From a virus (Duplodnaviria; Caudoviricetes): a stretch of 64,000 nucleotides of DNA. The notes beneath the pieces were generated by a model, which saw only the letters and a program-made list of their open reading frames with translations, searched no databases and was not told where the DNA came from. The stretch lies in the IMG/VR virus record IMGVR_UViG_3300033069_001852, one strand, 5' to 3'. Shown piece after piece: positions 3,296-55,358 of this stretch (its first letter is position 1; each line of letters starts with the position of its first letter). The position numbers were made by a program, and so were the translations under genes.

Positions 3296-3361
3296 TGCGT
3301 ACGGTTCTTGGTGTTTTATTTCTATATTTATACGCCAATTAATAGTGTAGTAACTCCAGAT

Positions 3362-4333
3362 ATGTGTAACGAAAAATTATTAAACTTACCAACTTTAATG
3401 TCAGGTTCTAAAATGCGTATAAAATGGAATTCAAAAATTTCAGGGATTTATGCTTGGGTTAATGAATTAAATGGAAAAATGTATGTGGGACAAGCTACTA
3501 ATTTCTATAGGCGGATTTATGATGAAATGAATGGTTTTAAGAATAATAAGGATCAAAATCTTAAAAAACTTTACAACGCAGTAAAGAAATATGGAATTTC
3601 TAATTTCAGGGTAATTAAGTTGTTGGAGTCCCCCGTGGTTTATTTGAATAAGTTGGAATGTCTTCTTATAGGATATTACGATACAAAAGAAAAAGGTTAC
3701 AATTGTACGCTCGGTGGAGAAGGTAGTGTCAATCACATAGTAACCTCTGAACAAATAGAAAAACACAAACAAACTATGAACAAATACTGGAATGAGGATC
3801 GGAGAACTATCCATTCCAATAAAATGAAAATTTGGTTTAACTCTAAAACAATCCGTGACCAAGAACGTATGATATCTGGAAACGGCTGGTGGTTAAATCC
3901 AGAAATAAAGGAAAAACATCTCTCCAACACCAGATCATCAATGACTAGTCGCCGAGTGGAACAACAAAAATTATCATTGAAGAAGTTCTATAAAACGAAC
4001 AAAAATAAAAATTGTATGAATAGAGAAATAATCTCTCCGACGAATGATGTGGTAAAAATAAATGGATTGTGCTCGTTTTGTAAAATGTATAAAATAGGAA
4101 TGAAAGGTATCGTGCGTGTTATTCGTGGAGAACACAAACATTACAAAGGATGGCACATAGACCCAGGGTTTGTATATATGCCTAACGTGGAGTACGTGCG
4201 GGATAATTCTGGTAGAATTCATTCCTTTACATCCATTTCACAGTTCTGTAAGAACAATGGGATCGATAGGGGAAATTTGAGAAAAGTGTTAAATGGGATA
4301 GGTAATTCGTGTGGAGGATTTCAAAAATTATAA
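3362..4333 (+). CDS. GIY-YIG homing endonuclease
   Basis: SGIYAWVNELNGKMYVGQA..R and GYNCTLGGEG motifs; C-terminal NUMOD1-like repeats; AT-rich. Start uncertain (3308/3362/3398). Confidence 0.85.
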   Translation: MCNEKLLNLPTLMSGSKMRIKWNSKISGIYAWVNELNGKMYVGQATNFYRRIYDEMNGFKNNKDQNLKKLYNAVKKYGISNFRVIKLLESPVVYLNKLECLLIGYYDTKEKGYNCTLGGEGSVNHIVTSEQIEKHKQTMNKYWNEDRRTIHSNKMKIWFNSKTIRDQERMISGNGWWLNPEIKEKHLSNTRSSMTSRRVEQQKLSLKKFYKTNKNKNCMNREIISPTNDVVKINGLCSFCKMYKIGMKGIVRVIRGEHKHYKGWHIDPGFVYMPNVEYVRDNSGRIHSFTSISQFCKNNGIDRGNLRKVLNGIGNSCGGFQKL

Positions 4334-4362: not shown

Positions 4363-4370
4363 TATTTATA
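4363..4370 (+). promoter_or_regulatory. Putative late promoter TATTTATA (sheath)
   Basis: Motif recurs upstream of at least 15 genes in the window. Confidence 0.7.
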
Positions 4371-7762: not shown

Positions 7763-8548
7763 ATGAACATTACAAAATTTGGAAATCCGATAGAGATTAA
7801 AAAAATATGTGAATGGACCAAAAAAGAATTCGTAGTTGATTGGAAGCATAGAAAACAAAGGTTTATCGATAAGATTTCTATGTATGCGTGGAGAAAATTC
7901 AATAATAGAGAAATAGCGATTTGTGGTGGGTGTGGAAAATTATTTGAAAGATGTAAAAGAATATCGGATTATAAAAAGAACTTACCCACACAATACTGCT
8001 CCCTTCACTGCTCATTATCATCAGATACAAAGAGGGAAAAATTAAGGAAGTGGGGATTGTCAGAAAAAAATCACTGGAATACAGAAAAATGTCAGAATAA
8101 GGTGAGGGCCACAAAATTAAAATTGTATGGTGATGTCAACTATAACAACAAAGAACAAACCAAAGAGACATGTTTGGAAAAGTATGGAGTACCGTTTGCG
8201 GTATACCTCCCACGATGTCAATCTAATGGAAAAAGAATATCAAAATTTCAAAAAAAAATATATCTAAATGTATTAAAAGATCATCCCGATGCTGTTCTGG
8301 AACACTATCTCCCGGATGTTAAGCGATTCGTGGATATATATGTTCCGTCTGAAAGGAGTGTTATCGAATGCCATGGGGATTACTGGCATTGTAATCCTAA
8401 AAAATGTAGAAAAGATTACTATAACAAATCGGTAAAAATGACAGCGGAAAAAATCTGGGACAAGGATGGGGCCAAGAGAAAATTGTTAGAAGCGGCTGGG
8501 TATGTGGTGTCCGTCGTGTGGGAAAATTCATTGAAAAAATTTAAATGA
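7763..8548 (+). CDS. Vsr/DUF559-like PD-(D/E)XK homing endonuclease
   Basis: Zn-binding CxxC modules, KETCLEKYGV repeat, VDIY...VIECHGDYWH and VVWE motifs. Confidence 0.75.
   Translation: MNITKFGNPIEIKKICEWTKKEFVVDWKHRKQRFIDKISMYAWRKFNNREIAICGGCGKLFERCKRISDYKKNLPTQYCSLHCSLSSDTKREKLRKWGLSEKNHWNTEKCQNKVRATKLKLYGDVNYNNKEQTKETCLEKYGVPFAVYLPRCQSNGKRISKFQKKIYLNVLKDHPDAVLEHYLPDVKRFVDIYVPSERSVIECHGDYWHCNPKKCRKDYYNKSVKMTAEKIWDKDGAKRKLLEAAGYVVSVVWENSLKKFK
8150..8187 (+). repeat. 38-bp perfect inverted repeat, copy 1 (partner 14456-14493)
   Basis: AAAGAACAAACCAAAGAGACATGTTTGGAAAAGTATGG; the exact reverse complement lies at 14456-14493. Confidence 0.9.
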
Positions 8549-10183: not shown

Positions 10184-11058
10184 ATAAATCAAATCTAAAA
10201 GAATTTGTCAAACGGACACTGGAAGCGATGGAAGACTTGACCAACATAAAAAAGAAACAATCTGGCGTCAGTCCCGATAAACTAAAACATTCTGGATGTC
10301 CGAAGTGTAAAAATCCAATGACCACATTGAATTCCACCAAACCGCCGATGTGGGGCTGCGACAAATGTAAACATACCTGGAAAGAAGCGGTCAATGAAAA
10401 CGACGAACCAATAAAAAGAGCATATTCTAAATACAAAGCGGTGTGTAGAAAATCCCCCTGGAAATTCGATGAAAAAAATATAGCTTCATTTGGAGTATTT
10501 AAAAAACACTACCTGAGTAAAAAAGACAAAGTAAATGAAGAGCACGGCGATGTCCATTATTGGGGTGCGCAACCAAAAGATAAAAATAGTAGTATCTCTA
10601 CGGGCTATAAAGGGACCGATCCGATAAAAACCCCTGTGACTGAGGCTGGTCAACCAAAAATGAGTCCTATGGATTTTGAGATTAAAAGGCGCGAAATCGA
10701 AAATATCCTTAATAAAGGCGGTCGACGCAACGCCGTCGTAGATTTTTTTGATCAAAAAGAAATTATAGACCTAACAGGCGATACGGATAAGGATGGCGCA
10801 ATTGTAATCCAACCAAACAAAGCTTTAGACATATATCGCGGGGGTATTTTTATCTACCCAACCCACTATGAGATTTTACTTAAACTTGTTGATGGTAAAA
10901 AGATTGATCTTCGTAAAGTAACGGATTGGGACCAGGTCAAGAAAACCATTCGTGGTTATAGCGGATTAAACGAATCCATCAATAACAAAGCGCTCCACCG
11001 ATTGGTTATCGAGGCGGCTAAAGAAGTCGTCGCGGAAAGTCGTAATAGGAAAAAATGA
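10180..11058 (+). CDS. Hypothetical protein, Zn ribbon, probable head-internal protein
   Basis: CPKC..CDKC; LKEFVKRTLE leader and repeated VNE/VTE/LNE segments. Confidence 0.55.
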   Translation: MNKSNLKEFVKRTLEAMEDLTNIKKKQSGVSPDKLKHSGCPKCKNPMTTLNSTKPPMWGCDKCKHTWKEAVNENDEPIKRAYSKYKAVCRKSPWKFDEKNIASFGVFKKHYLSKKDKVNEEHGDVHYWGAQPKDKNSSISTGYKGTDPIKTPVTEAGQPKMSPMDFEIKRREIENILNKGGRRNAVVDFFDQKEIIDLTGDTDKDGAIVIQPNKALDIYRGGIFIYPTHYEILLKLVDGKKIDLRKVTDWDQVKKTIRGYSGLNESINNKALHRLVIEAAKEVVAESRNRKK

Positions 11059-13271
11059 TACAATTCCGGATTTACAACAAACACCTTGACCAAAATCTCT
11101 GGAATGAGCAGAAAGAGCTTGATCCGGAGGTGCGGACTATTCTCCTGAAGATCGCTAAGGATTATTATGAGGGGAACAAAGAAATTGAAGGTGCGCTGGT
11201 CGACGCGTATATCGTCGGTTCCTCCGCAAATTACAATTGGACTCCGGATAGCGATATAGACTTACATCTGGTCGTTGACGCAAGTAAATTAGATTTGGAG
11301 GAGGAAACGGCCCGTTCATTATTCGAATTGATGGCCAATAAATGGAACCAAAATCACGCCATTAAAGTCAAAGGTCACAATCTTGAACTCTACATTCAGG
11401 ACATCAACCACAATGTGCGCTCTTCTGGAATTTATTCACTTACCACCGGCGAATGGGTAAAAGAACCCCATCCGGAAAAAGTGGAAATCGACGAAGAAAA
11501 TATTAAACAAAAATACCGGAATATGGTAGCCCGGATAGACAACGCCGTCCAGGAACAAAGCGTGGTCAAGATGAAGAAGGTGATGGAAGATTTACGGAAC
11601 CAACGCAACACCGGCCTTGCCCGCGCAGGTGAATTTAGCACGGAAAATATTGTTTTCAAGATGCTGCGTCGGTTTGGCAACATCGAAAAGTTAAAGAAGG
11701 CAACGCATCAGGTTTATGACCGGGAAATGACTCTGACGGAAGGCATTAAAAATCCCCACGATTTGATTATTGGTTACGTCACCCCCTCTTTAAAAGTAAA
11801 CGCAAAGGATTATTCCCAGATCAAGGGGCATACTGATTTTATTGATGTGAAGAGTTGGTATGGTGTCACCGCCTGGCGGTTCCGTCGTGATCTAAATTTA
11901 TTATTCTGGTGGAAACCGCATACGGGTGAGATTAGTCAAGATGAACGGGATACGGTCGTGGAATTTCTGGAACAGAAGTACAAAGCGCGTAACATCACTC
12001 AAAAATTTTTAGTTCCTGGGCCAGGTATGAATCAGGATAACTGGGACATTTCCCACGGCGTGAAAGAGACCCTTCAACAGGAGGAAGATGGGGGTCGGAT
12101 TAATCCCGATGATCTAATCGTTGGCTATATCGACAAAAATATGGAGATAAAATCCACCTCCAGTCGTATCGCCAAGACCCACGGACATTTCAGCGGTCAA
12201 TACTGGAATGGTCAGGATAGGACCATTGGCTGGCGCTTCCGCAAAGATTTAGGAGTATTATACTGGTGGGATGGTGACCCGGATGATCGTTCGGTGAGTA
12301 ATGCCGACCGGCTGGCGGTGTTAGATTACCTGCGTGAAAAATATCATTTCACGGGACCAATTCAACAAAAAATCATTACCATCGGTGATAACGATACCCG
12401 GGACGATAAACGAAGAGCCCACGGGGTGTTTGAAATGGCCGATTTACAGCTAAAAGGTAAAACTCCCTATGCGGGGGAAGTGCGGCTTAAAGATTTGCCG
12501 ATTGAAGCCGCCAAAGAAAACATTGTGGTTTTTCGCAACGACAAGGAAACCTTTTTCCCCGCCGGATTTACCTTGGTTTATTTCATGGATTCTGACCAAG
12601 CCGTTCAAGCCATTAAAACCGGCGGCATTCCCTACCTTATGGTGCCCCGTGGGACATTTTATTCCGGCGGCTCACCAATCACCGACATCTGGAAGAAAAA
12701 ATTTCAAAAACCAGGTACCGAACATATCATTGGTGTATTAGAAGGCGTAAGCAATGACCAGGAAATTTTCGTGGATATGCTTACCGTCCGGCCACATTGG
12801 CAAAGAAATCACGTCGCCACACGGATGCTTAATCAGTTAAAAACAATGTTCCCCAACGCACAAGTTAAAACTTCCGGCCAGACGGCGACCGGTGAAAAAT
12901 TTTTTAGTGCGCTGAAAGAAGAGGATACCAACCCTAATCGCAGCTTTACATGGATAACCGGATTAACCAACGACAATTTAGAATCGGTTTCCGAAAAATA
13001 TAGCGGGCACATCAACAATGTTACCCATCAAAAACTTCAAATAAAAAATTCGCAGAAATTTCCTACGGGGCATACAATTGCCTGGCGCTATGTTTATGAT
13101 GGCGACTTCATAAATTTTTGGAATTCACCCTCTGCCGATCAAACGGAAGAAATTTACTCCCACCTTAAACAAAAATACGGAATTACGCCCAAACGCAATG
13201 TCATCATACCGTCCCACAAACATATGTTTACGCCGCGGACAGATGAGCCGCTTGCGGAGCTTGCGGTTTAG
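11055..13271 (+). CDS. Multidomain protein: Pol-beta-type nucleotidyltransferase + three repeats of an unknown domain + GNAT acetyltransferase
   Basis: IVGSSANYNW..DSDIDLHL (GS...DxD) with a downstream ELY; repeats G......WR(F/Y)..D....(F/Y)W...L.QKY; VDMLTVRPHWQRNHVATRML (GNAT motif A) and QT..GEKFF. Confidence 0.75.
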   Translation: MIQFRIYNKHLDQNLWNEQKELDPEVRTILLKIAKDYYEGNKEIEGALVDAYIVGSSANYNWTPDSDIDLHLVVDASKLDLEEETARSLFELMANKWNQNHAIKVKGHNLELYIQDINHNVRSSGIYSLTTGEWVKEPHPEKVEIDEENIKQKYRNMVARIDNAVQEQSVVKMKKVMEDLRNQRNTGLARAGEFSTENIVFKMLRRFGNIEKLKKATHQVYDREMTLTEGIKNPHDLIIGYVTPSLKVNAKDYSQIKGHTDFIDVKSWYGVTAWRFRRDLNLLFWWKPHTGEISQDERDTVVEFLEQKYKARNITQKFLVPGPGMNQDNWDISHGVKETLQQEEDGGRINPDDLIVGYIDKNMEIKSTSSRIAKTHGHFSGQYWNGQDRTIGWRFRKDLGVLYWWDGDPDDRSVSNADRLAVLDYLREKYHFTGPIQQKIITIGDNDTRDDKRRAHGVFEMADLQLKGKTPYAGEVRLKDLPIEAAKENIVVFRNDKETFFPAGFTLVYFMDSDQAVQAIKTGGIPYLMVPRGTFYSGGSPITDIWKKKFQKPGTEHIIGVLEGVSNDQEIFVDMLTVRPHWQRNHVATRMLNQLKTMFPNAQVKTSGQTATGEKFFSALKEEDTNPNRSFTWITGLTNDNLESVSEKYSGHINNVTHQKLQIKNSQKFPTGHTIAWRYVYDGDFINFWNSPSADQTEEIYSHLKQKYGITPKRNVIIPSHKHMFTPRTDEPLAELAV

Positions 13272-14838
13272 TTGAGTGCCAAACCCACTTGGTATTGCCA
13301 CAATCCCAGATTCGGTCAAACCCAGCCGCCTGCATGTTCCCCCACTCCGTCAACGCAGGGTTAAAATTACTTAACACCTTTTTCAATTTGTGTTTTTGAA
13401 ATGACATACGATTTTTCGAAGTGGCATAATTGCCCATAATGTAGAAATAATTTGGGCTAGTATTATGCGAAAACAAGAATCCTAATTGAACGTATAAATT
13501 TCCTGTAAAAAATCGCCTGTCGCTGTAAGAGACGATGCTTTTCGGTTTAAAATTATTGATAAAGTGATTAAATAATTTACCGGCACTGCCAATGACACTG
13601 GTATCCAATTTATTACAGAACCTAGACATCTCCCACTCCACTTTCTTATCAAACCGGGATTTGCAAAATGTCATTAACGATACCAATTCATTTTTACTAT
13701 ATAAACCAAACCGAAGGGACGATATATCCTTTCCCTGTAAATGATTGTTTACAAGAAATAAATCACTTTCATTTTTTGGAACCGGACGGATAACGCATTT
13801 TCGCCCAAAAACTTTTTGGTTTTGATGGCGGGAAAAAAGATTCTTTAAAATAGATTTTATGATCGATTGTTTAAATTTCCATTCGTCTTCCCATATCTGT
13901 AACAACCTAATGCCATTCAACAAACAACGTTTCATTTTATTTAAATGGTATACCTTATTTTTTCCGCCAATACACTCACTGTGCCAATATAACCCATTAC
14001 ACTCAATGGCTAGTTTGAGTTTTGGAATATAGATATCCAATTCTTTTGGACTTAAAATTGTTCTATCATCAATGGCAATGTCAATCTCCGGTCCCAACAA
14101 TTCCGTGACATAATCCACGATTTCTTTTTGGAAAAATGACATGCCATTTTTATCACACGTTGGACATATCGGCCCCTTTCCATTGCTGATGAAATATTCC
14201 GACTTGTAATTACACCGTTTACACTTAAACGGATATTTTTTATTAAACGCCTTTGTAACTCCGGAGTACTCATCTAAACCGAACAGAGGTTCAAAATTTA
14301 CGAACCGCTCGTGATCCATAAATTTAGAAAACATATTTTTGTTATGGACCAATTTAAACTGTCGTGTTTTGGAGGGGTGATCGACTCCGTATTTCCTTAT
14401 ACAGGTATTTTGACTTTTCAAACGATATGCTTCAGTATTTAGAAAACTGGAAACGCCATACTTTTCCAAACATGTCTCTTTGGTTTGTTCTTTATTGTTA
14501 TAATTTTCGTCACCGTATCTGGCCGATAGTGTTTTCTTGGTTTTATCCTTATGATCGGACATTTTCCCAGGATGATCCACCCCATGTTTATTCAACATCG
14601 ACTGTTTGAACCTTTCTTGGGTTTGTGTAGTTTGCATGGGATGATGGCCACCATAACGAAGATCGTGAATTTCTTTTTGACTAGCCGCCATTTTCGCCAA
14701 TGTATCAGGATGTTTCTGTGCACATGCCTTACTACAGAACCGTTGGACATTTCGCTTGTAGAAGGATACGGAAAATGTTTTTTGGCAAGTTAGACATGTT
14801 TTTTCAACAAAGTCAGGATTTAGTTTTGGTCGCCCCAT
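13228..14838 (-). CDS. Hef-like homing endonuclease (KYGV repeats + PD-(D/E)XK) with C-terminal Mom-like GNAT domain
   Basis: KYGVDHP repeats; ELDIYIP..KLAIECNGLYWHS, IWEDEW; C-terminal NHLQG, ELVSLMTF, WEMSRFC, IVSYSDRR..G.LY..LGF, RIWDCG. Confidence 0.8.
   Translation of the reverse strand: MGRPKLNPDFVEKTCLTCQKTFSVSFYKRNVQRFCSKACAQKHPDTLAKMAASQKEIHDLRYGGHHPMQTTQTQERFKQSMLNKHGVDHPGKMSDHKDKTKKTLSARYGDENYNNKEQTKETCLEKYGVSSFLNTEAYRLKSQNTCIRKYGVDHPSKTRQFKLVHNKNMFSKFMDHERFVNFEPLFGLDEYSGVTKAFNKKYPFKCKRCNYKSEYFISNGKGPICPTCDKNGMSFFQKEIVDYVTELLGPEIDIAIDDRTILSPKELDIYIPKLKLAIECNGLYWHSECIGGKNKVYHLNKMKRCLLNGIRLLQIWEDEWKFKQSIIKSILKNLFSRHQNQKVFGRKCVIRPVPKNESDLFLVNNHLQGKDISSLRFGLYSKNELVSLMTFCKSRFDKKVEWEMSRFCNKLDTSVIGSAGKLFNHFINNFKPKSIVSYSDRRFFTGNLYVQLGFLFSHNTSPNYFYIMGNYATSKNRMSFQKHKLKKVLSNFNPALTEWGNMQAAGFDRIWDCGNTKWVWHSTKPQAPQAAHLSAA
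14456..14493 (-). repeat. 38-bp perfect inverted repeat, copy 2 (partner 8150-8187)
   Basis: Exact reverse complement of 8150-8187. Confidence 0.9.
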
Positions 14839-14962: not shown

Positions 14963-15454
14963 ATGACCGAACTAATTAATCCAAATGAGATATTCTGGAC
15001 TGCCTTCGAACCAAAAGTGAAGAACAGGTTCATTATGTATCTTGACGGTGTCCCCGCTTTCACTATTCGTAAGACTGACCGCCCAAAGGTACAGAGCGAA
15101 AAGAAAGCTCTGGACCACATCAACACCCAGCGTTATTACAAGGGCAAGACCACTTGGCAAGATATGACGATGGAACTTTACGACCCTATTGTCCCGTCCG
15201 CCGCGCAAGCCGTGATGGAATGGATTCGGCTTTCTCACGAAAGCGTAACGGGCCGCGATGGTTATCAGGACTTCTACAAGAAGGATGTCACCATCAACGT
15301 TTTGGGTCCCGTCGGTGATAAAGTGGAAGAGTGGGTTCTCAAAGGGGCCTTCCCGATTGCCGCAGACTTTCAAGATGTTGATTGGCAGGACAGCGGCGAT
15401 CCACTGGGCATTACGGTCACCCTCAGTATTGACTACGCAATTCTACAATACTGA
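14963..15454 (+). CDS. Tail tube protein (T4 gp19-like)
   Basis: FEPK..NRF, GKTTW, LYDPI.PS.AQAVMEW, GRDGY..FYKKD, GD.VEEW.LKGAFP, LSIDYA; 163 aa. Confidence 0.92.
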   Translation: MTELINPNEIFWTAFEPKVKNRFIMYLDGVPAFTIRKTDRPKVQSEKKALDHINTQRYYKGKTTWQDMTMELYDPIVPSAAQAVMEWIRLSHESVTGRDGYQDFYKKDVTINVLGPVGDKVEEWVLKGAFPIAADFQDVDWQDSGDPLGITVTLSIDYAILQY

Positions 15455-15483
15455 TATCCAATAAACACGGATATTTCAAATTT

Positions 15484-15520
15484 CTCCTTACTACTAAACC
15501 TGGTAAGGAGATTTTTATTT
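15484..15520 (+). terminator. Intrinsic terminator after tail tube
   Basis: CTCCTTAC...GTAAGGAG stem followed by ATTTTTATTT. Confidence 0.65.
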
Positions 15521-15545
15521 ATGCGCATCCAATCCGCGGGAGTTA

Positions 15546-15553
15546 TATTTATT
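15546..15553 (+). promoter_or_regulatory. Putative late promoter TATTTATT (ART-like array)
   Basis: Between the tube terminator and ATG 15570. Confidence 0.65.
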
Positions 15554-15569
15554 CTCATACTCTAGTCTT

Positions 15570-16580
15570 ATGTCCATTATTAGATTAAAACCGATAGTTG
15601 AAGCTACCTTGTCTGAAAAAACTGCTTTTGGCAGTCGCTCTGGCCAGAAATCCCTTCGCCGGTTTGAGGTTAAATCGGAAGTTTTCCAACGGCTTTTAAA
15701 TGGACCTTTCAAAAACTATTCCCACCGTGAGCTACCGGAATATGAAAAAATATATCGGCTCGCTGAAAAACGCCGTAGCAAATCCAGAGGCGCTCCTGTG
15801 GAATATGAAATCATTGTGCCCCGTAAATCAGAACGCAGCTCAAAGGATTCCTGGAATACCTACACGGTATTGTTGAGTAAATTGCCTAGTTGGGCCGGCT
15901 GGCCCAAGCGTTCCCATTCCGTGATATTTTTCGTTGGGTCGATTAAGACGGATACCCAGTATGGGAGTCATATTTATAGGCTTATCCCCAAGAACGGGGC
16001 GAAAATTGCGGTGTCCACTCACCACGACATTTTAGAGCCGCCCGCCTGGCCTCACATGCGCCAACTCTTGTCCCGGAATGGTCAATTCATTGATATCACC
16101 GTGCTTTGTCAATTACTTGGTCGCATGATCAGTTGGGCGCAGGTGGCTAAAAAATATAAAGACAAAGCTCCGAACGTGTTCGGCAGCGACTTAAATGACC
16201 TTAAATCTCAAAATTTAAATAATTGGGTTATGAATGTGCGGTTAGAAAATTATGCTAAACTCATAAAACTTTTGGATGCTTCCCTAAACCAAAAAACCCT
16301 GCCCCAAATTAAAAACGCCTTGGACAGCGCTTTTACCAACTCCCCGTTGGGGGAATGGCAAAAAAATAGATTCTTGGAGTATAAGGAAACTTTTGAATTT
16401 TATGCTAATTTGGTGGAGAAATATGGCGGCTGGGAAAACTTATTGAGTGAAGCGTTGGATCCGGTTAAAAATGGTTTCGAACTGATGACGGCAGAGAATG
16501 TCCGCCCCAACCATAATAAATCGTGTGAGGCCTGGACCGATGACGCGTGTTTGATGAAATATGACAAGGGGAATTTTTAA
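15570..16580 (+). CDS. ADP-ribosyltransferase-fold paralogue 1 (divergent)
   Basis: Shares LPSW..WPKRS.S, YG, P.NGAKI, L.P..NGF and EAWTD with the next three ORFs; has IYRL in place of YRG and lacks the central Ser. Confidence 0.5.
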   Translation: MSIIRLKPIVEATLSEKTAFGSRSGQKSLRRFEVKSEVFQRLLNGPFKNYSHRELPEYEKIYRLAEKRRSKSRGAPVEYEIIVPRKSERSSKDSWNTYTVLLSKLPSWAGWPKRSHSVIFFVGSIKTDTQYGSHIYRLIPKNGAKIAVSTHHDILEPPAWPHMRQLLSRNGQFIDITVLCQLLGRMISWAQVAKKYKDKAPNVFGSDLNDLKSQNLNNWVMNVRLENYAKLIKLLDASLNQKTLPQIKNALDSAFTNSPLGEWQKNRFLEYKETFEFYANLVEKYGGWENLLSEALDPVKNGFELMTAENVRPNHNKSCEAWTDDACLMKYDKGNF

Positions 16581-17455
16581 TGTTAAAACTGTCCAACATT
16601 TTGACGGAGACGACCAGACGGAGCCAGAAGATTCGCAAACCCATCTTTATGAATGCTTTGGTCCGGGGTCAATTCTCTTCTGCTTATAACAAAATGTTGG
16701 AGGGACGGAGGATCTATCGGGGCATAACCGGTAGTGCGGAATGGCCTTATTGGATTGTCAAACCAGGCTCCGCGGAGCGCAAATCACGCAATACTTCCAA
16801 TTTTTATACCGGCTTGATTGATAACTTACCAAGTTGGAAAAACTACCCCAAACGCAGCCGTAGTATCATATGTTCTACCGGACGTGGTGGAGCAGCTTCG
16901 TTTGGTAATGTTCTGGATGTCTTTCCAAAAAATGGAGCCAAAATTGGCATTTGTTCAGCGGAAGATTTCTGGTTATCCTTCCCGGCCACCCACACGCGGC
17001 TTGATCTTCAGGACATGTCCTATTTCAACGCGTATTTCATTTCTATTTTTTACCAAGCCTCTCACAAGCTTTCGCATCTAGCCTCCGAACTGACGGATAA
17101 AACTTATCCCGCATTTATCAAGCTTGCGAATGAGTTGATTAACAAAGAAAAATACATTGAAACGATTAACATTCAGAGGTCGGTAGACCGTTTACCTTAC
17201 GGCGTATCTTCGGATATGTTGGTGAAGGATGTCCGGTTTAATTTTAACAACGATTGGGAAAAATACTTTGATGAATTGTTGAATCCTGAAATTAACGGCT
17301 TTGTGATTACTACGATTGAAGATTACCAAATACCAACCGATTCCGCCAGCGACATCGAAATTTGGACAGACGCACCTTCACTAATGATTAGCCATCACCA
17401 TCAACAGGAATTATTTTCCTCCGATCTTGCGGCTCGGCCTGGAGGCACGATATGA
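16580..17455 (+). CDS. ADP-ribosyltransferase-fold paralogue 2
   Basis: IYRG ... SIICSTGRGGAASFG ... DIEIWTD gives an R-S-E-like triad; MLKLSNILTE leader. Confidence 0.6.
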   Translation: MLKLSNILTETTRRSQKIRKPIFMNALVRGQFSSAYNKMLEGRRIYRGITGSAEWPYWIVKPGSAERKSRNTSNFYTGLIDNLPSWKNYPKRSRSIICSTGRGGAASFGNVLDVFPKNGAKIGICSAEDFWLSFPATHTRLDLQDMSYFNAYFISIFYQASHKLSHLASELTDKTYPAFIKLANELINKEKYIETINIQRSVDRLPYGVSSDMLVKDVRFNFNNDWEKYFDELLNPEINGFVITTIEDYQIPTDSASDIEIWTDAPSLMISHHHQQELFSSDLAARPGGTI

Positions 17456-18429
17456 TAAAACTCTCTTACTTGTTAATGGAAGATGAGAATGAGCGTGATC
17501 CCAGCTTGAGGAAGTCTCGGGAAATCCCGGTCACTGCCGCCATTAACATCTTACGCACCCAGTGTACGGAAGCGGTAAAACTATTCAGTGAGCACCCAGC
17601 GGGAACCGGTTTATACCGTGGTTATCGGAGTGATAATTATTGTTTGGAAATTGACCCAACAACCCGGGAACGAACGGGCAGCCGCAACTTATATAACGCA
17701 TTAACTTCCATTTTACCGTCCTGGTCAGAATTCCCCCAGCGTAGCCATTCCGTGATGTTCAGTCCGACTCCGGAAATCGCCAAGGTTTATGGTAAAATTT
17801 ATTGGTTATTTCCTTTTGACCAATCGTCGATTGCGCATTGTAATAACCGTGATTGTTGGTATTCTTTTGAATACGCTACCAAGAGGCTCGGTAGGGGGAT
17901 TAGCAGTATTGATTATGTCATGGATTTATTTTCAATACTGATCGCATATTCAGTGATTTCAACACGGAAAGATATTGATGGGAATTATTATTTCAATACT
18001 AAAGTGGGCAAGCATTTCACCAAACGTGAATATACGGTTTCAAATGCGCAAGCCTTGTTGAAAGAGATGAAACGTATTACTCCCGCAATTTTAAAGCTTT
18101 GTCAGAAAGAAATTGACAAACCAAAAAAGGATTTTGAAATCGTCGGCATATGCGGGGATATCCTTAAAAATTTTAAAGGGGATTGGGTGGAATACTTCGA
18201 TTTACTATTAAGTCCGGAAAACAATAAAATAGGTTTGACAACTATTTCCGAAACCGTGAAGTTTCCCCGGGTGGAAATGTGGACGACCGGAAAATGTATT
18301 ATGGTTAACCCCCAGACCGATTTTAACTTTTACAACCTTGGCGACACTTCAATCTGCGGCACATTTTTTAAACATAATATTCAGGTGGCGAAAACCGCCG
18401 GTGCCATCCACCTAATGGGGATTCCATGA
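17452..18429 (+). CDS. ADP-ribosyltransferase-fold paralogue 3
   Basis: LYRG ... SVMFSPTPEIAKVYG ... VEMWT; MIKLSYLLME leader. Confidence 0.6.
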   Translation: MIKLSYLLMEDENERDPSLRKSREIPVTAAINILRTQCTEAVKLFSEHPAGTGLYRGYRSDNYCLEIDPTTRERTGSRNLYNALTSILPSWSEFPQRSHSVMFSPTPEIAKVYGKIYWLFPFDQSSIAHCNNRDCWYSFEYATKRLGRGISSIDYVMDLFSILIAYSVISTRKDIDGNYYFNTKVGKHFTKREYTVSNAQALLKEMKRITPAILKLCQKEIDKPKKDFEIVGICGDILKNFKGDWVEYFDLLLSPENNKIGLTTISETVKFPRVEMWTTGKCIMVNPQTDFNFYNLGDTSICGTFFKHNIQVAKTAGAIHLMGIP

Positions 18430-19253
18430 TAAAACTTTCTCAACTATTGAATGAGTCGGATAATGTGGCAGGCGGCCCCCGGACAAAACAGATCGCCAGT
18501 GCCGCAGCAGGACAGAAACTTCTGATCCATAAAGCTTCAGCCGCTCTAGAAGCTGCCCGCCGGGATTGTGGAATTTACCGTGGGGTGAAAACCCTACCCA
18601 ATGAATATGCGGCCTACCGTTTTGTCCGGCCCGCTAAAGCTTATCGCATGGCTAAAAACACAACCAATTTTACCAATGCGGTGTTGGATGTTATTCCAAG
18701 CTGGAAGTCTTGGCCCAAGCGCAGTCAGAGCATCGTCTGTTCCAATGCGCCCGACCGCGCCGGCGGCTATGGTATAACCTTTGGGGTTTTTCCTTTTAAC
18801 GGAGCTAAGATCGGAATCAGTTCCGATGCGGATTTCTGGATGTCTTTCGAAAGGTTAAATGATCGTTTGGGTTGGGATGTCGCCACCTTCAACGATCAGA
18901 TGGCCATTGCCCTAGAGGGGATAGGGATATATGAAGATTTGGAGCGGATACTACCGCGGGGAATACAAAAAATCTTTAATCACATTGACAGCAAATTTAT
19001 ATTGTACCCCAATTTTTTCGAAAACCTTTTTGCTTCAAGTTCCTATCGCAGCCGTGACCCTATATTAAAGGACATGGCCAAATATATGACTGAAGGCGCA
19101 GAGAAATATTTTGACGAATTACTAAATCCTGAGGCGAACGGTTTTAAATTAGTCACCATTGAAGAATACGATTTGAGTCAGTATCCAGCAATGGAGGTCT
19201 GGACCGATAGTCCGGCTCTATTAATTGATCGCAAGGTGGTGGCTTTACCTTAA
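18426..19253 (+). CDS. ADP-ribosyltransferase-fold paralogue 4
   Basis: IYRG ... SIVCSNAPDRAGGYG ... MEVWTD; MIKLSQLLNE leader. Confidence 0.6.
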   Translation: MIKLSQLLNESDNVAGGPRTKQIASAAAGQKLLIHKASAALEAARRDCGIYRGVKTLPNEYAAYRFVRPAKAYRMAKNTTNFTNAVLDVIPSWKSWPKRSQSIVCSNAPDRAGGYGITFGVFPFNGAKIGISSDADFWMSFERLNDRLGWDVATFNDQMAIALEGIGIYEDLERILPRGIQKIFNHIDSKFILYPNFFENLFASSSYRSRDPILKDMAKYMTEGAEKYFDELLNPEANGFKLVTIEEYDLSQYPAMEVWTDSPALLIDRKVVALP

Positions 19254-19272: not shown

Positions 19273-19995
19273 ATGGTAAAACTAGCGGAATTGGTGATGA
19301 ATGAGTCGGTTTATGACAAGGGACTATTTAAAGCGGTCTTTTTCGGCGGGCTTCCCGGAGCCGGCAAGTCCTACACCATACAAAATATCTCTGATGGCAA
19401 TATTGAACCCCGGATCGTCAATTTTGACAAGTATGCGGAATTTCTGGGCAAACAATTGGACATCAAAGATGTCGGAGGTTATGTGGATAAGACCTTCATT
19501 GACCGGACTAAGCGCATGACGATCAATCAACTTTCCCTGTATGTTAATGGAATGTTGCCCTTGTTCGTGGATAGTACAAGCAATAAGATTAACCGTGCAG
19601 TTTATCGGGATGGTTTGTTGAAAATGTTTGGTTATGACACCGCTATGGTTTGGGTCAATACTTCACTGGAGACTGCGATTAAACGAATTCAAAAACGGGA
19701 TCGTTCAGTCCCTATTCCTTTTGTCAAGGCGGTATTCAAGAATATGGAAGAGAATAAAGCCTACTACAAAAGCCATTTTGAAATGTTCGTTGAGGTTAAT
19801 AATGACGAAGGCGAATTGACCGATAAAGTCATTACCGACGCATACAAAAAAGTATCGGGATTTTTTAAAACGGAAGTGGGTAACCCCACCGGCCGCCGCA
19901 ATTACCAAGCGGCTAAAGCATCTTCCGGCTATTTGGTGCCTCAGGTTTACCGTGATATAAACAAAATCAAGAGCAAGTTAGTCAATTGGTATTGA
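19273..19995 (+). CDS. P-loop kinase (zeta-toxin/AAA_33/PNK-like)
   Basis: FKAVFFGGLPGAGKS Walker A, VNFD, FVDST, VNTSLETAIKR...RDR lid; start reassigned to MVKLAELVMNE. Confidence 0.8.
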   Translation: MVKLAELVMNESVYDKGLFKAVFFGGLPGAGKSYTIQNISDGNIEPRIVNFDKYAEFLGKQLDIKDVGGYVDKTFIDRTKRMTINQLSLYVNGMLPLFVDSTSNKINRAVYRDGLLKMFGYDTAMVWVNTSLETAIKRIQKRDRSVPIPFVKAVFKNMEENKAYYKSHFEMFVEVNNDEGELTDKVITDAYKKVSGFFKTEVGNPTGRRNYQAAKASSGYLVPQVYRDINKIKSKLVNWY

Positions 19996-20009
19996 TATTT
20001 ATACATTAC

Positions 20010-20321
20010 ATGAATTTTGCGCAATTAAAAACGATGATCAAAGCAATCCTCAATGAAGCAATTGATGGGTTTGTTTTTCACGATCATCCCGAAGCCGCAA
20101 CGGGCGATGGCTTCAACGTCCCAACGGATGTGAAATATAATAGCATTTATCTAGGCACGCTGGTTTCCAAGCCGGATGGTTATGAAATTGCGTATCTGGA
20201 CACACCTAAAGGCAAACAAAAAATTTCCAGCAATAAACAGAATAAATTTAAATCCAAGAACGCCGCGGCGGAAAAACTTCATGAGATTTGGCGTTTGGTC
20301 AGAAACAAAGGACTATTTTAA
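20010..20321 (+). CDS. Hypothetical protein with LKTMIKAILNE leader
   Basis: ATG 6 nt after TATTTATA (19996-20003). Confidence 0.6.
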   Translation: MNFAQLKTMIKAILNEAIDGFVFHDHPEAATGDGFNVPTDVKYNSIYLGTLVSKPDGYEIAYLDTPKGKQKISSNKQNKFKSKNAAAEKLHEIWRLVRNKGLF

Positions 20322-20322
20322 T

Positions 20323-21246
20323 ATGAATACAATTGGTATCCTCCCCGGGCGTTTTCAACCGCCGCATCGGGGGCACTTGGAAGCTTACAAACACGCCGTT
20401 CAGATCGTGGGTAAGAACAACGCATATGTTGCGACTTCTGACAAAATCGATCCGATTAAATCACCTTTGAATTTCAGAGAGAAGCAACAGATTTGGACGC
20501 GGCATGGGGTGCCAATTGATAAAGTTGTAAAGGTTACCAATCCCTATAAGTCGGAAGAAATCACGCATAAATTCAATCCCAAACAAACGGCGGCAATTTT
20601 CTTTCTTTCCCAGAAAGACGCCGCTAGGATTCCATTTAAAAACGCCGCGGGGCAACCCTCATATTTTCAACCCTATAAAGGTAATGAAGATAAACTTCAA
20701 CCTATTTCCGAACACGGTTATATCGCCGTAACTCCGACTTTTAAAATTGACGGTAAAAACATCTCCGGAACGGTAGTGCGTGAAGGCCTGGGATCGGCTA
20801 AATACAGCGAATCGCAAAAACGCAAACTCTTCCAATGGATCTTTGGTTGGTTTGATATGGCTCTGTTTGAATTGTTGGTGGATAAATTCACCGCCGCGGA
20901 ACAGGATAAAAACAAACCCGTCACTCCGATTAATGAGGTCCACCAAAGATTGAAAGAATATCTGAAGGGAATCATCCGAGAATTAACCTTTTCTGTGCCT
21001 AGTGTTGAGCCCGATGTTTCCGCCGATCCTAAAAAACCCACAACCATAACCGACCCCACGGCCGAAAAAGATCCAGATCAGGAACGAAAAGATCGGGAAA
21101 TGTCACGGCGAAAATTGGAATTGATAAAAAAGAAACGTCAATTCCAAGATAGTCAAAAGAACTGGCGCACAAAGGGGGTTGAACAGGACAAACGCGATAT
21201 CCGGGCCACCGATGCGGAAATCGCTGATTTGCGCTCCCAGATATAA
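20323..21246 (+). CDS. HIGH-motif nucleotidyltransferase (cytidylyltransferase/NMNAT-like) with charged C-terminal tail
   Basis: ILPGRFQPPHRGH, SPLNFREK, ISGTVVRE; start reassigned to MNTIG. Confidence 0.8.
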   Translation: MNTIGILPGRFQPPHRGHLEAYKHAVQIVGKNNAYVATSDKIDPIKSPLNFREKQQIWTRHGVPIDKVVKVTNPYKSEEITHKFNPKQTAAIFFLSQKDAARIPFKNAAGQPSYFQPYKGNEDKLQPISEHGYIAVTPTFKIDGKNISGTVVREGLGSAKYSESQKRKLFQWIFGWFDMALFELLVDKFTAAEQDKNKPVTPINEVHQRLKEYLKGIIRELTFSVPSVEPDVSADPKKPTTITDPTAEKDPDQERKDREMSRRKLELIKKKRQFQDSQKNWRTKGVEQDKRDIRATDAEIADLRSQI

Positions 21247-43744: not shown

Positions 43745-43773
43745 TTGATCATTTTCTTCATAACGGTTATAAT
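43745..43773 (+). promoter_or_regulatory. Sigma70-like early promoter
   Basis: TTGATC-N17-TATAAT; ATG at 43782. Confidence 0.65.
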
Positions 43774-43781
43774 TGTGGTCT

Positions 43782-44555
43782 ATGGTGGAACCGTATTTTG
43801 ACCCGAGCCGAATATCTTTAAAAGAAATATCCAAATCCGTTGCGAAGGATATGATTATAAAGTATCATTATTCGCATAAATGGACTTTATGCCGAATTGC
43901 TTATGGGATTTATCACCGCACGGATTCTGAAGCGGATTTCTTTAACGCAAAAAATGAGAATCTAATCGGAGTGGTAGTTTACGGCCAACCCGTTGGACGC
44001 TCCGCCGCGGCAAGCATTTCCACCACCATTGATATCAGTGAAGTCTTTGAATTGACGCGCTTATTTGTCCACGATGGTTACGGAAAGAACATTGAGAGTT
44101 ATTGTATTGCGCAAAGTTTGAAAAAAGTCAAACAAGATTTCTCTCATTTACAAGCCATTATCAGTTACGCCGACGGCGAACAAGGTCACCGTGGAATAAT
44201 CTACCAAGCTACGGGATTCCAATATCAAGGCAACTCTTCGTTAGCTTTAATGCCTAATTATTCCGTATCAATGGTCCCGGCGCCATATAAATGGATTCAT
44301 TCCCGGACGATATCATCCAATTATGGTTCTCACAATGTTGAACACTTAAAAAGCCGAATCGGTAAAACCTTCTGGCGGAAGAAAGAGTCAGCCAAACACC
44401 GATATGTTTATTTACTTGGCAATAAAGTTGAAAAGAAAAAAATCTTAGCCAACTTGAAACACCCTTTTCTACCGTATCCTAAAAATTCTACTCACACTGA
44501 TGAAATTGAGGAAGTCGTCGTAACGGAAACTGCCGGAAATTTGTTTTTTAACTAA
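43782..44555 (+). CDS. Mom-family DNA-modifying acetyltransferase (copy 1)
   Basis: HYSH, LIGVVVYGQP, ELTRL, NIESYCI, IISYADGEQGHRGIIYQATGF.Y.G, KHRYVY. Confidence 0.8.
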   Translation: MVEPYFDPSRISLKEISKSVAKDMIIKYHYSHKWTLCRIAYGIYHRTDSEADFFNAKNENLIGVVVYGQPVGRSAAASISTTIDISEVFELTRLFVHDGYGKNIESYCIAQSLKKVKQDFSHLQAIISYADGEQGHRGIIYQATGFQYQGNSSLALMPNYSVSMVPAPYKWIHSRTISSNYGSHNVEHLKSRIGKTFWRKKESAKHRYVYLLGNKVEKKKILANLKHPFLPYPKNSTHTDEIEEVVVTETAGNLFFN

Positions 44556-44563
44556 CCAGTCTA

Positions 44564-44571
44564 TATTTATT
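44564..44571 (+). promoter_or_regulatory. Putative late promoter TATTTATT (Mom copy 2)
   Basis: 4 nt upstream of ATG 44576. Confidence 0.65.
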
Positions 44572-44575
44572 GGGA

Positions 44576-45601
44576 ATGAGATTGGTTGAATTAATACTAG
44601 AGGGGTTAGAACAAGATTATTACATCAAAAAGACCACCGATTCTGAGGTAAAAGAATTGCTTTTGCGTGGTCACTATCTTGGGGCTTGGCCATTCGCGGG
44701 GTCACAATACAAAGACTATATCTATGGTATCTACCTCAAGCGCGCCGCTAAGCAATTACATTTAACCTCACCTCCGGAAGGCCAAGAACCGCCGAGTGAC
44801 GACGCGCTTATCGGTTGTATTGTTTATGGCTTTCCAGAATTTCATGCCTCTTCCTATGTTTCCAAGTGGCTTCGGACCTTGTTAAACCCCGATGAATCAA
44901 TCGAAGATATCTACCAAAATATCCGGGCCATCATTGAAAAAGACAAAGAGGAAGAGATTAAGGCCCAACAACGTGGTTATCCTTTTAAATCTAAAGCCCG
45001 CGTCATCATCCATAACATTCTTAATGCGACCAATGTTCAAGACAATCAGATTTTGGAATTGAAGAGATTGTATATCCTTCCAGAAATGGATTTAAAAAAC
45101 ATTGAGTCGTTTGCCATTGGTAAAGGCAATAAGGCAATTTTCGATAACAATCCCAATATTCAAGCGATTGTGTCTTTTTCTGATTCTCGGGTTGGTCACC
45201 ACGGCGGCGTTTATCAAGCGACGAACGCTTTGTACGCGGGTATTAATAAACCGGGACTCCACCGATATATCTACCCCCGGGATACTCTAGCGGCCACCAT
45301 CAAAAAGTATCAGAAACGATATGATGATCTTGTTTTTCAATATCCCAAACAACAACCGGGAAAAGAAGAACCCGAACAAGACATCAACTACTACGGGTTG
45401 GATATTTCTAAACGTGAAAAAATCGTTGTCCGCTATTTAAAAGGTATTCTTCCGCAACTGGACGATGAAACCTTAAAAGATGCGATCAATAAAGTATTGG
45501 ATATGATTGAAAAATCCCCCCAGAAGACCTTCCAGTTTAAAGAAATCAAGGAAATGGTCATTTCCGAACTCTTGGTTGAGTATATTCTCCAACGTAAATA
45601 A
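44576..45601 (+). CDS. Mom-family acetyltransferase (copy 2) with MRLVELILE leader
   Basis: HYLG, LIGCIVYG.P, ELKRL, NIESFAI, IVSFSD..VGHHGGVYQATN..Y.G, HRYIY. Confidence 0.75.
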   Translation: MRLVELILEGLEQDYYIKKTTDSEVKELLLRGHYLGAWPFAGSQYKDYIYGIYLKRAAKQLHLTSPPEGQEPPSDDALIGCIVYGFPEFHASSYVSKWLRTLLNPDESIEDIYQNIRAIIEKDKEEEIKAQQRGYPFKSKARVIIHNILNATNVQDNQILELKRLYILPEMDLKNIESFAIGKGNKAIFDNNPNIQAIVSFSDSRVGHHGGVYQATNALYAGINKPGLHRYIYPRDTLAATIKKYQKRYDDLVFQYPKQQPGKEEPEQDINYYGLDISKREKIVVRYLKGILPQLDDETLKDAINKVLDMIEKSPQKTFQFKEIKEMVISELLVEYILQRK

Positions 45602-54458: not shown

Positions 54459-54514
54459 ATGCCTTTTTCCGTAGTTTTTTCCGTGTTTTTGTATGTCGAG
54501 TTATATGTATTCAT

Positions 54515-54676
54515 ATGGGAAGATTTAAAAAATACAAAACGGACAAGCAAAAAGAAGAAGCTAAAAAAAGGTGGGATCATGAATACTATATGCGAAATAA
54601 AAAACGAATTGATGCGCGAGCAAAAGAAAGATACCATAAAAAGATTTTATGTCTATCATCTGATCGATCCGGCTGA
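54515..54676 (+). CDS. Small basic protein preceding the homing endonuclease
   Basis: MGRFKKYKTDKQKEEAKKRW..EYY.RNK; TATGTATT box just upstream. Confidence 0.45.
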   Translation: MGRFKKYKTDKQKEEAKKRWDHEYYMRNKKRIDARAKERYHKKILCLSSDRSG

Positions 54677-55358
54677 TAATCTTCCTTTTTATGTTGGAAA
54701 GGGGACAAAGTGGAGAATGTATAGGCACGAATCGGATGTTATTAATGGGAAAATTCCGAACGGAGGGACAAATATCATATTGTTTAGAAGAATAAATGAA
54801 ATTTTGGAAACAGGAAAAAGAGTAGTTTATCGAAAGGTATATGAACAACTTTCAAACGATGAAGCCAAAAACAAAGAAAAACATCAAATAAAAAAATTAA
54901 AAGAGGATGGGATTGTACTATGTAATTGTACTGAGGGTGGAGATGATAGACCAAGCAGAGAAGAAATAGGAAAAAGACATTCTTTAATTATGATGGGACA
55001 TAAAGTTACGGATGAAACGAAAAAGAAAATGTCCATAGGCTTTTGGAGAAACCGTAGAAAACCGTATTGGGATTACATAAAAGAGAAAAGTTATTCGTCA
55101 GGTTTCCACTTGTTTTGGAAGGGAAAGGCCCGCAGCATAGAAAATAAAGAACGTTGCGCACAATCAAAACTCGGAGAAAAAAATCCAATGTACAAAAAAG
55201 TCCCCGACAATATAATTCTATTTATCGTAAATTCTAGCGTGATTGATGGAATTTCTTACAGAGACATAAAGCCTATGGTATTAAAACAATTTGGTTATAA
55301 TTTAAGTTGTAACAAAATTGGAAAATTATTATCTCTACAACCTCACAATATCACATAA
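54612..55358 (+). CDS. GIY-YIG family homing endonuclease with NUMOD3-like repeats
   Basis: FYVYHLIDP....PFYVGKG...R...H, E...I, LCN.TEGG, HKVTDETKKKMS, GEKNPMY; start uncertain. Confidence 0.8.
   Translation: MREQKKDTIKRFYVYHLIDPADNLPFYVGKGTKWRMYRHESDVINGKIPNGGTNIILFRRINEILETGKRVVYRKVYEQLSNDEAKNKEKHQIKKLKEDGIVLCNCTEGGDDRPSREEIGKRHSLIMMGHKVTDETKKKMSIGFWRNRRKPYWDYIKEKSYSSGFHLFWKGKARSIENKERCAQSKLGEKNPMYKKVPDNIILFIVNSSVIDGISYRDIKPMVLKQFGYNLSCNKIGKLLSLQPHNIT

Follow-up and report, generated by a model that had tools for sequence, protein, structure and literature searches.

The DNA studied here is a stretch of 64,000 nucleotides (nt) from a virus of the Caudoviricetes (Duplodnaviria; IMG/VR record IMGVR_UViG_3300033069_001852), which is referred to below as the window. 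Directly behind a tail tube gene it carries a tandem array of four diverged paralogues, which we propose to be members of a very large, uncatalogued family with an ADP-ribosyltransferase (ART) fold in large phages with T4-type heads. The array fills positions 15570-19253 with four open reading frames (ORFs) on the + strand, whose stop and start codons overlap by 1, 4 and 4 nt, and the gene upstream of it (14963-15454) matches the T4 gp19 tail tube families; a preliminary description of this locus, made from the letters of the DNA, had proposed just this arrangement of coupled ORFs behind a tail tube gene. ORF1 (15570..16580) encodes 336 amino acids (aa) and is the most diverged paralogue, with the N-terminal leader MSIIRLKPIVE; it is followed by ORF2 (16580..17455; 291 aa; leader MLKLSNILTE), ORF3 (17452..18429; 325 aa; leader MIKLSYLLME) and ORF4 (18426..19253; 275 aa; leader MIKLSQLLNE). 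In the PHROGs database, all four fall in phrog_12810, a group of 'unknown function', with matches at 1.4e-14, 1.1e-38, 1.5e-20 and 2e-29, respectively.

The four ORFs can be aligned end to end, with pairwise identities of 22-35% and 27 invariant columns in the four-way alignment, among them Y-R, P-S-W, P.RS.S, G, P, D, W and E.WT. The shared motifs quoted in the preliminary description are thus real, with the qualification that ORF1 departs from them, having YRL for YRG, FFV for the C-S-T stretch and a 5-residue insertion within the D.W.SF motif. When variability is mapped along the alignment, identity amounts to ~40% in the leader and ~33% in two core halves (ORF2 residues 45-134 and 236-271), and falls to 12% in the middle stretch between them (ORF2 residues 135-235), which is 93-134 residues long in the four paralogues; the proposed division into a conserved core and a hypervariable insert is therefore borne out.

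Tail tube gene and array are separated by a terminator-like signal on the + strand (15483..15521), in which a hairpin with an 11-pair stem (15483-15511) is followed by a T run, TTTTTATTTA. A promoter-like box, TATTTATT, lies at 15546-15553 on the + strand, 24 nt upstream of the ORF1 ATG. It is a variant of the motif ATATTTAT[AT], which has 16 + strand sites in the window (for example at 4363, 8615, 9617, 14916, 15546, 19996, 22356, 31011, 42994, 45639 and 57093), 12 of them 6-47 nt upstream of + strand starts; the sheath and tube genes are among the genes preceded by such a box. The form TATTTATA occurs 15 times in the window, against 4.7 expected occurrences; it stands on the sense strand, although its sequence is that of the T4 late promoter TATAAATA in reverse complement. 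The motif is probably the phage's own promoter, perhaps a late one. The next box (TATTTATA, 19996..20003, + strand) directly follows the stop codon of a fifth gene, a P-loop kinase (19273..19995, + strand) with the leader MVKLAELVMNE, and for this reason we regard the four paralogues and the kinase, its last gene, as one unit. Both the box and a leader of the I/L-(K/R)-L type had been pointed out previously, and they hold up: all four paralogues start with M-x(1-3)-[KR]-L-...-[LIV]-x-E.

A large family of phage proteins

An exhaustive profile search with the family retrieved 4703 representative proteins at E <= 0.001, of which 2219 had E <= 1e-30, so that the resemblance among the paralogues is far above chance. 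The Atlas clusters that contain the family are 82-100% viral. Among deposited phage genomes, the family was found only in Agrobacterium phage Atu_ph07, Ralstonia phage RsoM2USA, Salicola phage SCTP-2 and two uncultured huge-phage records; no member was retrieved from XacN1, and a nucleotide search of the phage collection gave no match. Across 64 IMG/VR loci we counted 200 family ORFs, with at least two copies, mostly in tandem on one strand, in 43 of the loci, and a maximum of 11 in one locus.

The family is annotated in no database. The array proteins have no match in Pfam (E <= 1) or NCBIfam, and profile searches against the PDB, with 4 and with 150 sequences, returned nothing useful, pairing only the helical insert with designed helical proteins. 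In the literature searched the family is undescribed; the accessible parts of a jumbo-phage survey (PMC7824862) touch on ARTs in general terms only. The 788-column profile of phrog_12810 extends over the next gene, the kinase, which implies that fused forms exist. As to other architectures, five family members of 373-420 aa share a C-terminal domain of 80-140 residues that has no Pfam match and is missing from the window, and two further entries are family domains joined in a tandem fusion; a search aimed at longer, fused relatives came back empty.

Predicted fold and candidate active site

Confident AlphaFold models were obtained for paralogue 2 (47-sequence alignment; predicted local distance difference test score (pLDDT) 91.8, predicted template modelling score (pTM) 0.88) and paralogue 4 (150 sequences; pLDDT 90.2, pTM 0.87). 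A Foldseek search of the PDB gave no match. For both models the top three structural matches in a comparison library were Arr, BC2332 and diphtheria toxin, and in each of the two structure searches ART-superfamily chains made up ~30 of the 50 matches listed, including PARPs, exotoxin A, cholix, Tpt1, AcrIF11, TreX, DarT, CteC and Scabin. The comparison library comprised 48,161 representative chains, of which ARTs are estimated to account for well under 1%. In the Atlas, the nearest named cluster was ART-PolyVal, with a template modelling score of 0.50 across 111 of 139 residues, and ART-PolyVal was also the first match outside the family in BFVD. A language-model search of the Atlas, with a best score of 0.83, had among its top rows one cluster in which DUF2441, which belongs to the Pfam ART clan, is carried by 13% of the members; we regard this as a lead only. 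Of the top matches, BC2332-like proteins form an ADP-ribosylation family in SCOP (PMC3000352). The split β-sheet core of the ADP-ribosyltransferase fold superfamily (Pfam ART clan; SCOP d.166.1) can thus be recognised in the predicted structures, and the ART fold proposed in the preliminary description is supported by two models whose match lists are both dominated by ART-superfamily chains, as well as by the Atlas and BFVD results.

At the sequence level, the comparison with ART families gave no link, neither in Pfam nor by PDB profiles. For the T4 ModA/ModB family (PF26816) there was no Pfam match, and hhalign against the ModA/ModB alignment reached a probability of 1.6%, from which we conclude that the array proteins belong to no known ART family as judged by sequence. 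The YRG motifs do pair with each other in hhalign comparisons with T4 ModB, ModA and their alignment, at probabilities of 0.5-1.6%, which are not significant.

To locate a candidate active site, conservation was computed over 167 family members, with the numbering of ORF2. Strand 1 (46-49) reads [IL]-[YF]-R47-G48, where position 47 is Arg in 156 members and Lys in 11. At the end of strand 2 (96-99), C98 is found in 156, [ST]99 in 154 and [TSN]100 in 157 members, and strand 5 (260-263) starts with E260, present in 166 and followed by [VI]-W-T. R67, N74, W86, P90 and R92 are conserved in 100% of the members and D129 in 165. The candidate catalytic residues of paralogue 2, R47, C98-S99-T100 and E260, which are conserved at 93-99%, therefore stand on strands 1, 2 and 5 in the canonical ART order, with Arg, a small polar motif and Glu arranged as in the R-[ST]-E clade (PMC7955679). 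Arg and Glu of this clade are present in the array, and on strand 2 the family has C-[ST]-[TSN] rather than S-T-S, the first Ser of the canonical motif being replaced by Cys. All four paralogues retain R47, R67, N74, W86, R92, S93, S95, D129 and E260, whereas the strand-2 motif varies from CST in ORF2 and CSN in ORF4 to FSP in ORF3 and FFV in ORF1. With FFV in place of the strand-2 motif and YRL in place of YRG, ORF1 may be catalytically altered. The R-S-E signature that had been called established is thus not so, given the deviating strand 2 and its loss in ORF1, the absence of a [QE]-x-E motif and the missing profile matches.

The variable helical insert of ~100 residues is located between strands 4 and 5. 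In known ARTs, this is where the ARTT and acceptor loops reside, and by analogy with these recognition loops the position fits the idea that the insert sets the target of each paralogue.

N-terminal leader, virion presence of homologues and the adjacent kinase

All four paralogues begin with a leader of 10-11 residues that ends in [LIV]-x-E. Across the family, the pattern M-x(3-14)-[LIVM]-x-E is found in 143 of the 167 members, mostly ending at residue 9 or 10, with the consensus M-[KR]-[FL]-x-Q-Y-[LI]-x-E. Within one phage the leader varies far less than the remainder of the protein, whereas from phage to phage it changes: all 11 Atu_ph07 members carry M-[RK]-W-x-Q-L-[TN]-E (e.g. MRWEQLTE), RsoM2USA leaders end in FLQE, YLTE and DLFE, and array copies in the window read MIKLSxLLxE. 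In the model of paralogue 4 the leader appears disordered, with a pLDDT of <50 for residues 5-13. It is also found on unrelated proteins of the same gene clusters, namely the kinase, DUF6267 proteins, an Amidoligase_2 protein and many uncharacterised ones with a locus-specific peptide. In the 64 IMG/VR loci, it is carried by 76% of the family ORFs and 83% of the kinases, compared to 18.5% of other ORFs of at least 150 aa.

In T4, the first 10 residues of the internal protein IPIII suffice for packaging, with residues 8 and 10 governing processing; the prohead protease gp21 cuts after Glu, and Alt, which is packaged in the head and injected, loses a 7-residue N-terminal propeptide (PMC9026906). 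T-even phages have diverse internal proteins, which share only this capsid targeting sequence, or CTS (PMC3012670). A leader of ~10 residues ending in [LI]-x-E and common to otherwise unrelated neighbours has the form of T4-type head cargo, and by this analogy the leader of the array proteins behaves like a CTS.

A corresponding protease is encoded in related genomes, as Peptidase_S77, the gp21 family, was found in four of the five family-carrying records, the fifth being a fragment estimated to be 17% complete. In Atu_ph07, for which gene products follow gpN = AUZ(94812+N), a numbering that we verified by gene lengths and protein masses, the protease is gp204 and the 11 ORFs matching the family profile are gp53-gp63. 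All 11 have been detected in Atu_ph07 virions by electrospray ionization tandem mass spectrometry, with 3-31 unique peptides and 12-47% coverage, and the same virion list contains gp43, a protein outside the family with the same leader (PMC6102473 Table S5). The published proteomics of RsoM2USA is uninformative for the family, because only the ten major bands were analysed. The delivery within the virion that had been proposed for the array is hence supported indirectly, by the CTS-like form of the leader and by the presence of all 11 homologues in the virions of another phage.

The kinase that ends the unit matches AAA_33 at 1.3e-7, Zeta_toxin at 3.8e-4 and, weakly, PSTK, and in PHROGs it matches families called 'ATPase' and 'polynucleotide kinase'. 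It shares 35% identity with residues 250-410 of Atu_ph07 gp53, a 778-aa fusion of an ART-like domain with a kinase that is present in the virion list (PMC6102473). Homologues occur on the same strand in 29 of the 64 IMG/VR loci, mostly within 50 bp of a family ORF, and 25 of 30 such homologues carry the leader; an alignment of 21 kinase sequences shows no variation at the leader Glu, at the Walker A Lys or at two arginines of the lid. The conserved adjacency and the fusion suggest that kinase and ART-fold proteins work together, although two independent cargo proteins in one operon would fit these data equally well.

Runs of ORFs outside the family with a locus-specific leader were seen in five IMG/VR loci among others, one of which shows MKFKQYLxE on five such ORFs. 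These runs include DUF6267 and Amidoligase_2 proteins and resemble 'cargo islands' that extend well beyond the ART-fold family. In the window, the gene behind the kinase (20010-20321, with a possible start at 20034) is a small basic ORF of 103 aa with an isoelectric point (pI) of 9.3; a promoter-like box stands only 14 nt upstream of its first ATG, and an internal Met starts the leader-like MIKAILNE. The product of this ORF could be a small cargo protein of the internal-protein type.

Farther downstream, 20323-21246 encodes a cytidylyltransferase-fold protein with an HxGH motif, the weak best matches of which are nicotinamide mononucleotide adenylyltransferases, all below the cut-offs. An enzyme that makes nicotinamide adenine dinucleotide (NAD) beside ART-fold genes is suggestive, though only 2 of 64 loci preserve this neighbourhood, and we consider a functional link to the array unsupported by synteny. 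Among the other genes of the window is one for a 738-aa protein (11055-13271) whose N-terminal part is a nucleotidyltransferase domain of the pol-beta type (PF22600, PF01909) and which matches GNAT weakly around residue 560. Two adjacent genes (43773-45601) match Mom-like DNA modification proteins (phrog_1384), and homing-endonuclease-like genes lie at 3308-4333, 7763-8548, 54459-55358 and 13228-14838; the last of these runs on the opposite strand and falls between the tube gene and the sheath-to-tube island.

Proposed function and relation to known systems

We favour, with a probability of roughly 0.55, a reading in which the array encodes ART-fold enzymes that are expressed late, loaded into the capsid and injected with the DNA, as a counterpart of T4 Alt on a larger scale and of different build. 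Array and kinase would be expressed as one unit from the promoter-like box behind the terminator, probably late, like the sheath and tube genes that share this box. The leader would take each protein into the prohead core and would then be removed by a gp21-type prohead protease, leaving mature proteins of ~30-37 kDa that would remain in the head and enter the cell together with the DNA. There, the most likely activity would be the NAD+-dependent ADP-ribosylation of host macromolecules at a site formed by the Arg of strand 1, C-[ST]-[TSN] of strand 2 and the Glu of strand 5, with the variable insert giving each paralogue its own substrate. The preliminary description, with its fold, its probable virion delivery and its variable insert, is largely right in substance, and overstated with respect to the motif.

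Several observations weigh against this reading. No sequence method, be it Pfam, NCBIfam, PDB profiles or hhalign against ModA/ModB, ties the family to any ART. In place of [QE]-x-E, the family has D, N, S or G two positions before the Glu, the strand-2 motif is lost in ORF1 and only half kept in ORF3, and that R47, C98-T100 and E260 converge on one cleft is deduced from the order of the predicted strands. The head genes of the phage lie outside the window, and the evidence for a protease comes from related records. Finally, the virions of Atu_ph07 were purified with polyethylene glycol, and their protein list includes a few non-structural replication proteins, making some carry-over possible; moreover, these data show presence in the virion and are silent on N-terminal cleavage (PMC6102473).

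Alternatively, the proteins could be capsid-loaded internal or ejection proteins that derive from the ART fold and have lost catalysis, acting as head fillers, as DNA-associated proteins or as stoichiometric inhibitors of host defence like T4 IPI. This is the strongest of the alternatives, though in our view clearly improbable. It would agree with the many copies per genome and their good peptide coverage in Atu_ph07 virions, with a mildly basic pI of 7.7-9.5, with the missing [QE]-x-E and the degenerate strand 2 of ORF1 and ORF3, and with the diversity of the T-even internal proteins, which have only the CTS in common (PMC3012670). However, R47, R67, N74, R92, S93, S95, D129 and E260 are conserved at 91-100% over the 167 members, which are otherwise ~30% identical, and all eight of these polar residues are kept in the four copies; conservation of this kind points to an active site rather than to a filler.

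Somewhat less probable still, active ART-fold enzymes might act on nucleic acids or small molecules, in the manner of DarT, Tpt1, Arr or NADases, with the co-packaged kinase working on RNA or DNA ends. The best structural matches lend this idea some weight, as they include Arr, a small-molecule ART, BC2332 and Tpt1-type chains, with DarT also listed, and a number of invariant Arg and Lys residues might serve in phosphate binding. The same is true of the kinase, which is similar to polynucleotide kinase, PSTK and zeta toxins, adjacent on the same strand in nearly half of the loci (29 of 64) and fused in Atu_ph07 gp53, but which may be merely another cargo protein of the operon. Tpt1 enzymes are characterised by an R-H-R-R set. 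The family has no invariant His, and hence neither this set nor the H-Y-[EDQ] triad (PMC7955679). The remaining alternative, that the proteins are not ARTs, their fold matches reflecting a common β-sheet arrangement and their N-terminal similarity a conserved helix of the ordinary kind instead of a signal for packaging, could appeal to the Foldseek result and to the scores of the language-model leads, all under 0.85, but is quite unlikely in view of ~60% ART chains among the listed matches, the repetition of this result with a second paralogue, the independent convergence of the Atlas and BFVD searches on ART-PolyVal, and a leader that is shared by unrelated proteins and disordered in the model.

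Extending the favoured reading of injected ART-fold enzymes beyond the array, one may tentatively suppose, at somewhat less than even odds, that 'cargo islands' are a feature of large phages with T4-type heads: late operons from which the product of any gene endowed with the short, phage-specific [LIVM]-x-E leader would be packed into the capsid and injected. The ART-fold family (>4700 clusters) would dominate this cargo, with its target insert diversified gene by gene, and would travel with a dedicated kinase of the polynucleotide kinase/zeta type, so that the first seconds of infection would be fought with pre-made modifying enzymes. To our knowledge, T4 Alt is the single textbook case of an ADP-ribosylating enzyme in a phage head; the present data suggest a family that is larger by a factor of hundreds, with up to 11 copies per genome and with members in the cultured phages Atu_ph07, RsoM2USA and SCTP-2. 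If active, these proteins would amount to a large and still unexploited collection of enzymes that modify the host or counter its defences, and whose target modules vary naturally. From the leader, a simple, portable rule would follow for predicting the injected proteins of giant phages, and a packaged kinase, if confirmed, would be of interest in its own right.

Several known systems resemble the array in part. Like T4 Alt, which is loaded into the head and delivered with the DNA (PMC9026906), the array proteins are phage proteins with a predicted ART fold and a short N-terminal propeptide-like leader, and their strand 1, I-Y-R-G, is close to the [LW]-[YW]-R-G of ModA and ModB. Unlike the T4 enzymes, of which ModA and ModB were covered by the sequence comparison, they are 275-336 aa long, contain the helical insert and lack E-x-E; and where T4 packages one Alt, 2-11 genes of the family stand in tandem, accompanied by a kinase that has the leader too. 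With the CTS system of T4 (IPI, IPII, IPIII and gp21) they share a leader of ~10 residues in which Glu stands at the putative cut site and a hydrophobic residue at -2, its occurrence on otherwise unrelated co-encoded proteins that differ between related phages (PMC9026906, PMC3012670), and gp21-family proteases in related records. In contrast to that system, the cargo is enzyme-sized and dominated by one expanded family, and the leader, for which targeting and cleavage are proposed by analogy, varies from phage to phage. Arr rifampin ADP-ribosyltransferase and BC2332-like proteins (SCOP d.166.1.6) are more remote, with no sequence similarity, other conserved residues and a bacterial rather than a phage-virion context.

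The polyvalent ART-PolyVal proteins (PF18760; Iyer et al. 2017) are likewise phage-delivered ARTs that sometimes occur in multiple copies, with 12 domains in one protein (PMC5512222). Their active site, however, is H / Y / D within domains of giant proteins, whereas the array has R / C-[ST]-[TSN] / E in separate leader-bearing genes, with Arg instead of His on strand 1, Glu instead of Asp on strand 5, and no Pfam match to PF18760 at E <= 1. Taken together, the array represents a new family, of predicted ART fold and activity, that is probably deployed in a known way, as exemplified by T4 Alt, the CTS cargo and the multi-copy polyvalent ARTs (PMC5512222); what is new in this proposed deployment is its much larger scale, its distribution over separate leader-tagged genes and its dedicated kinase.

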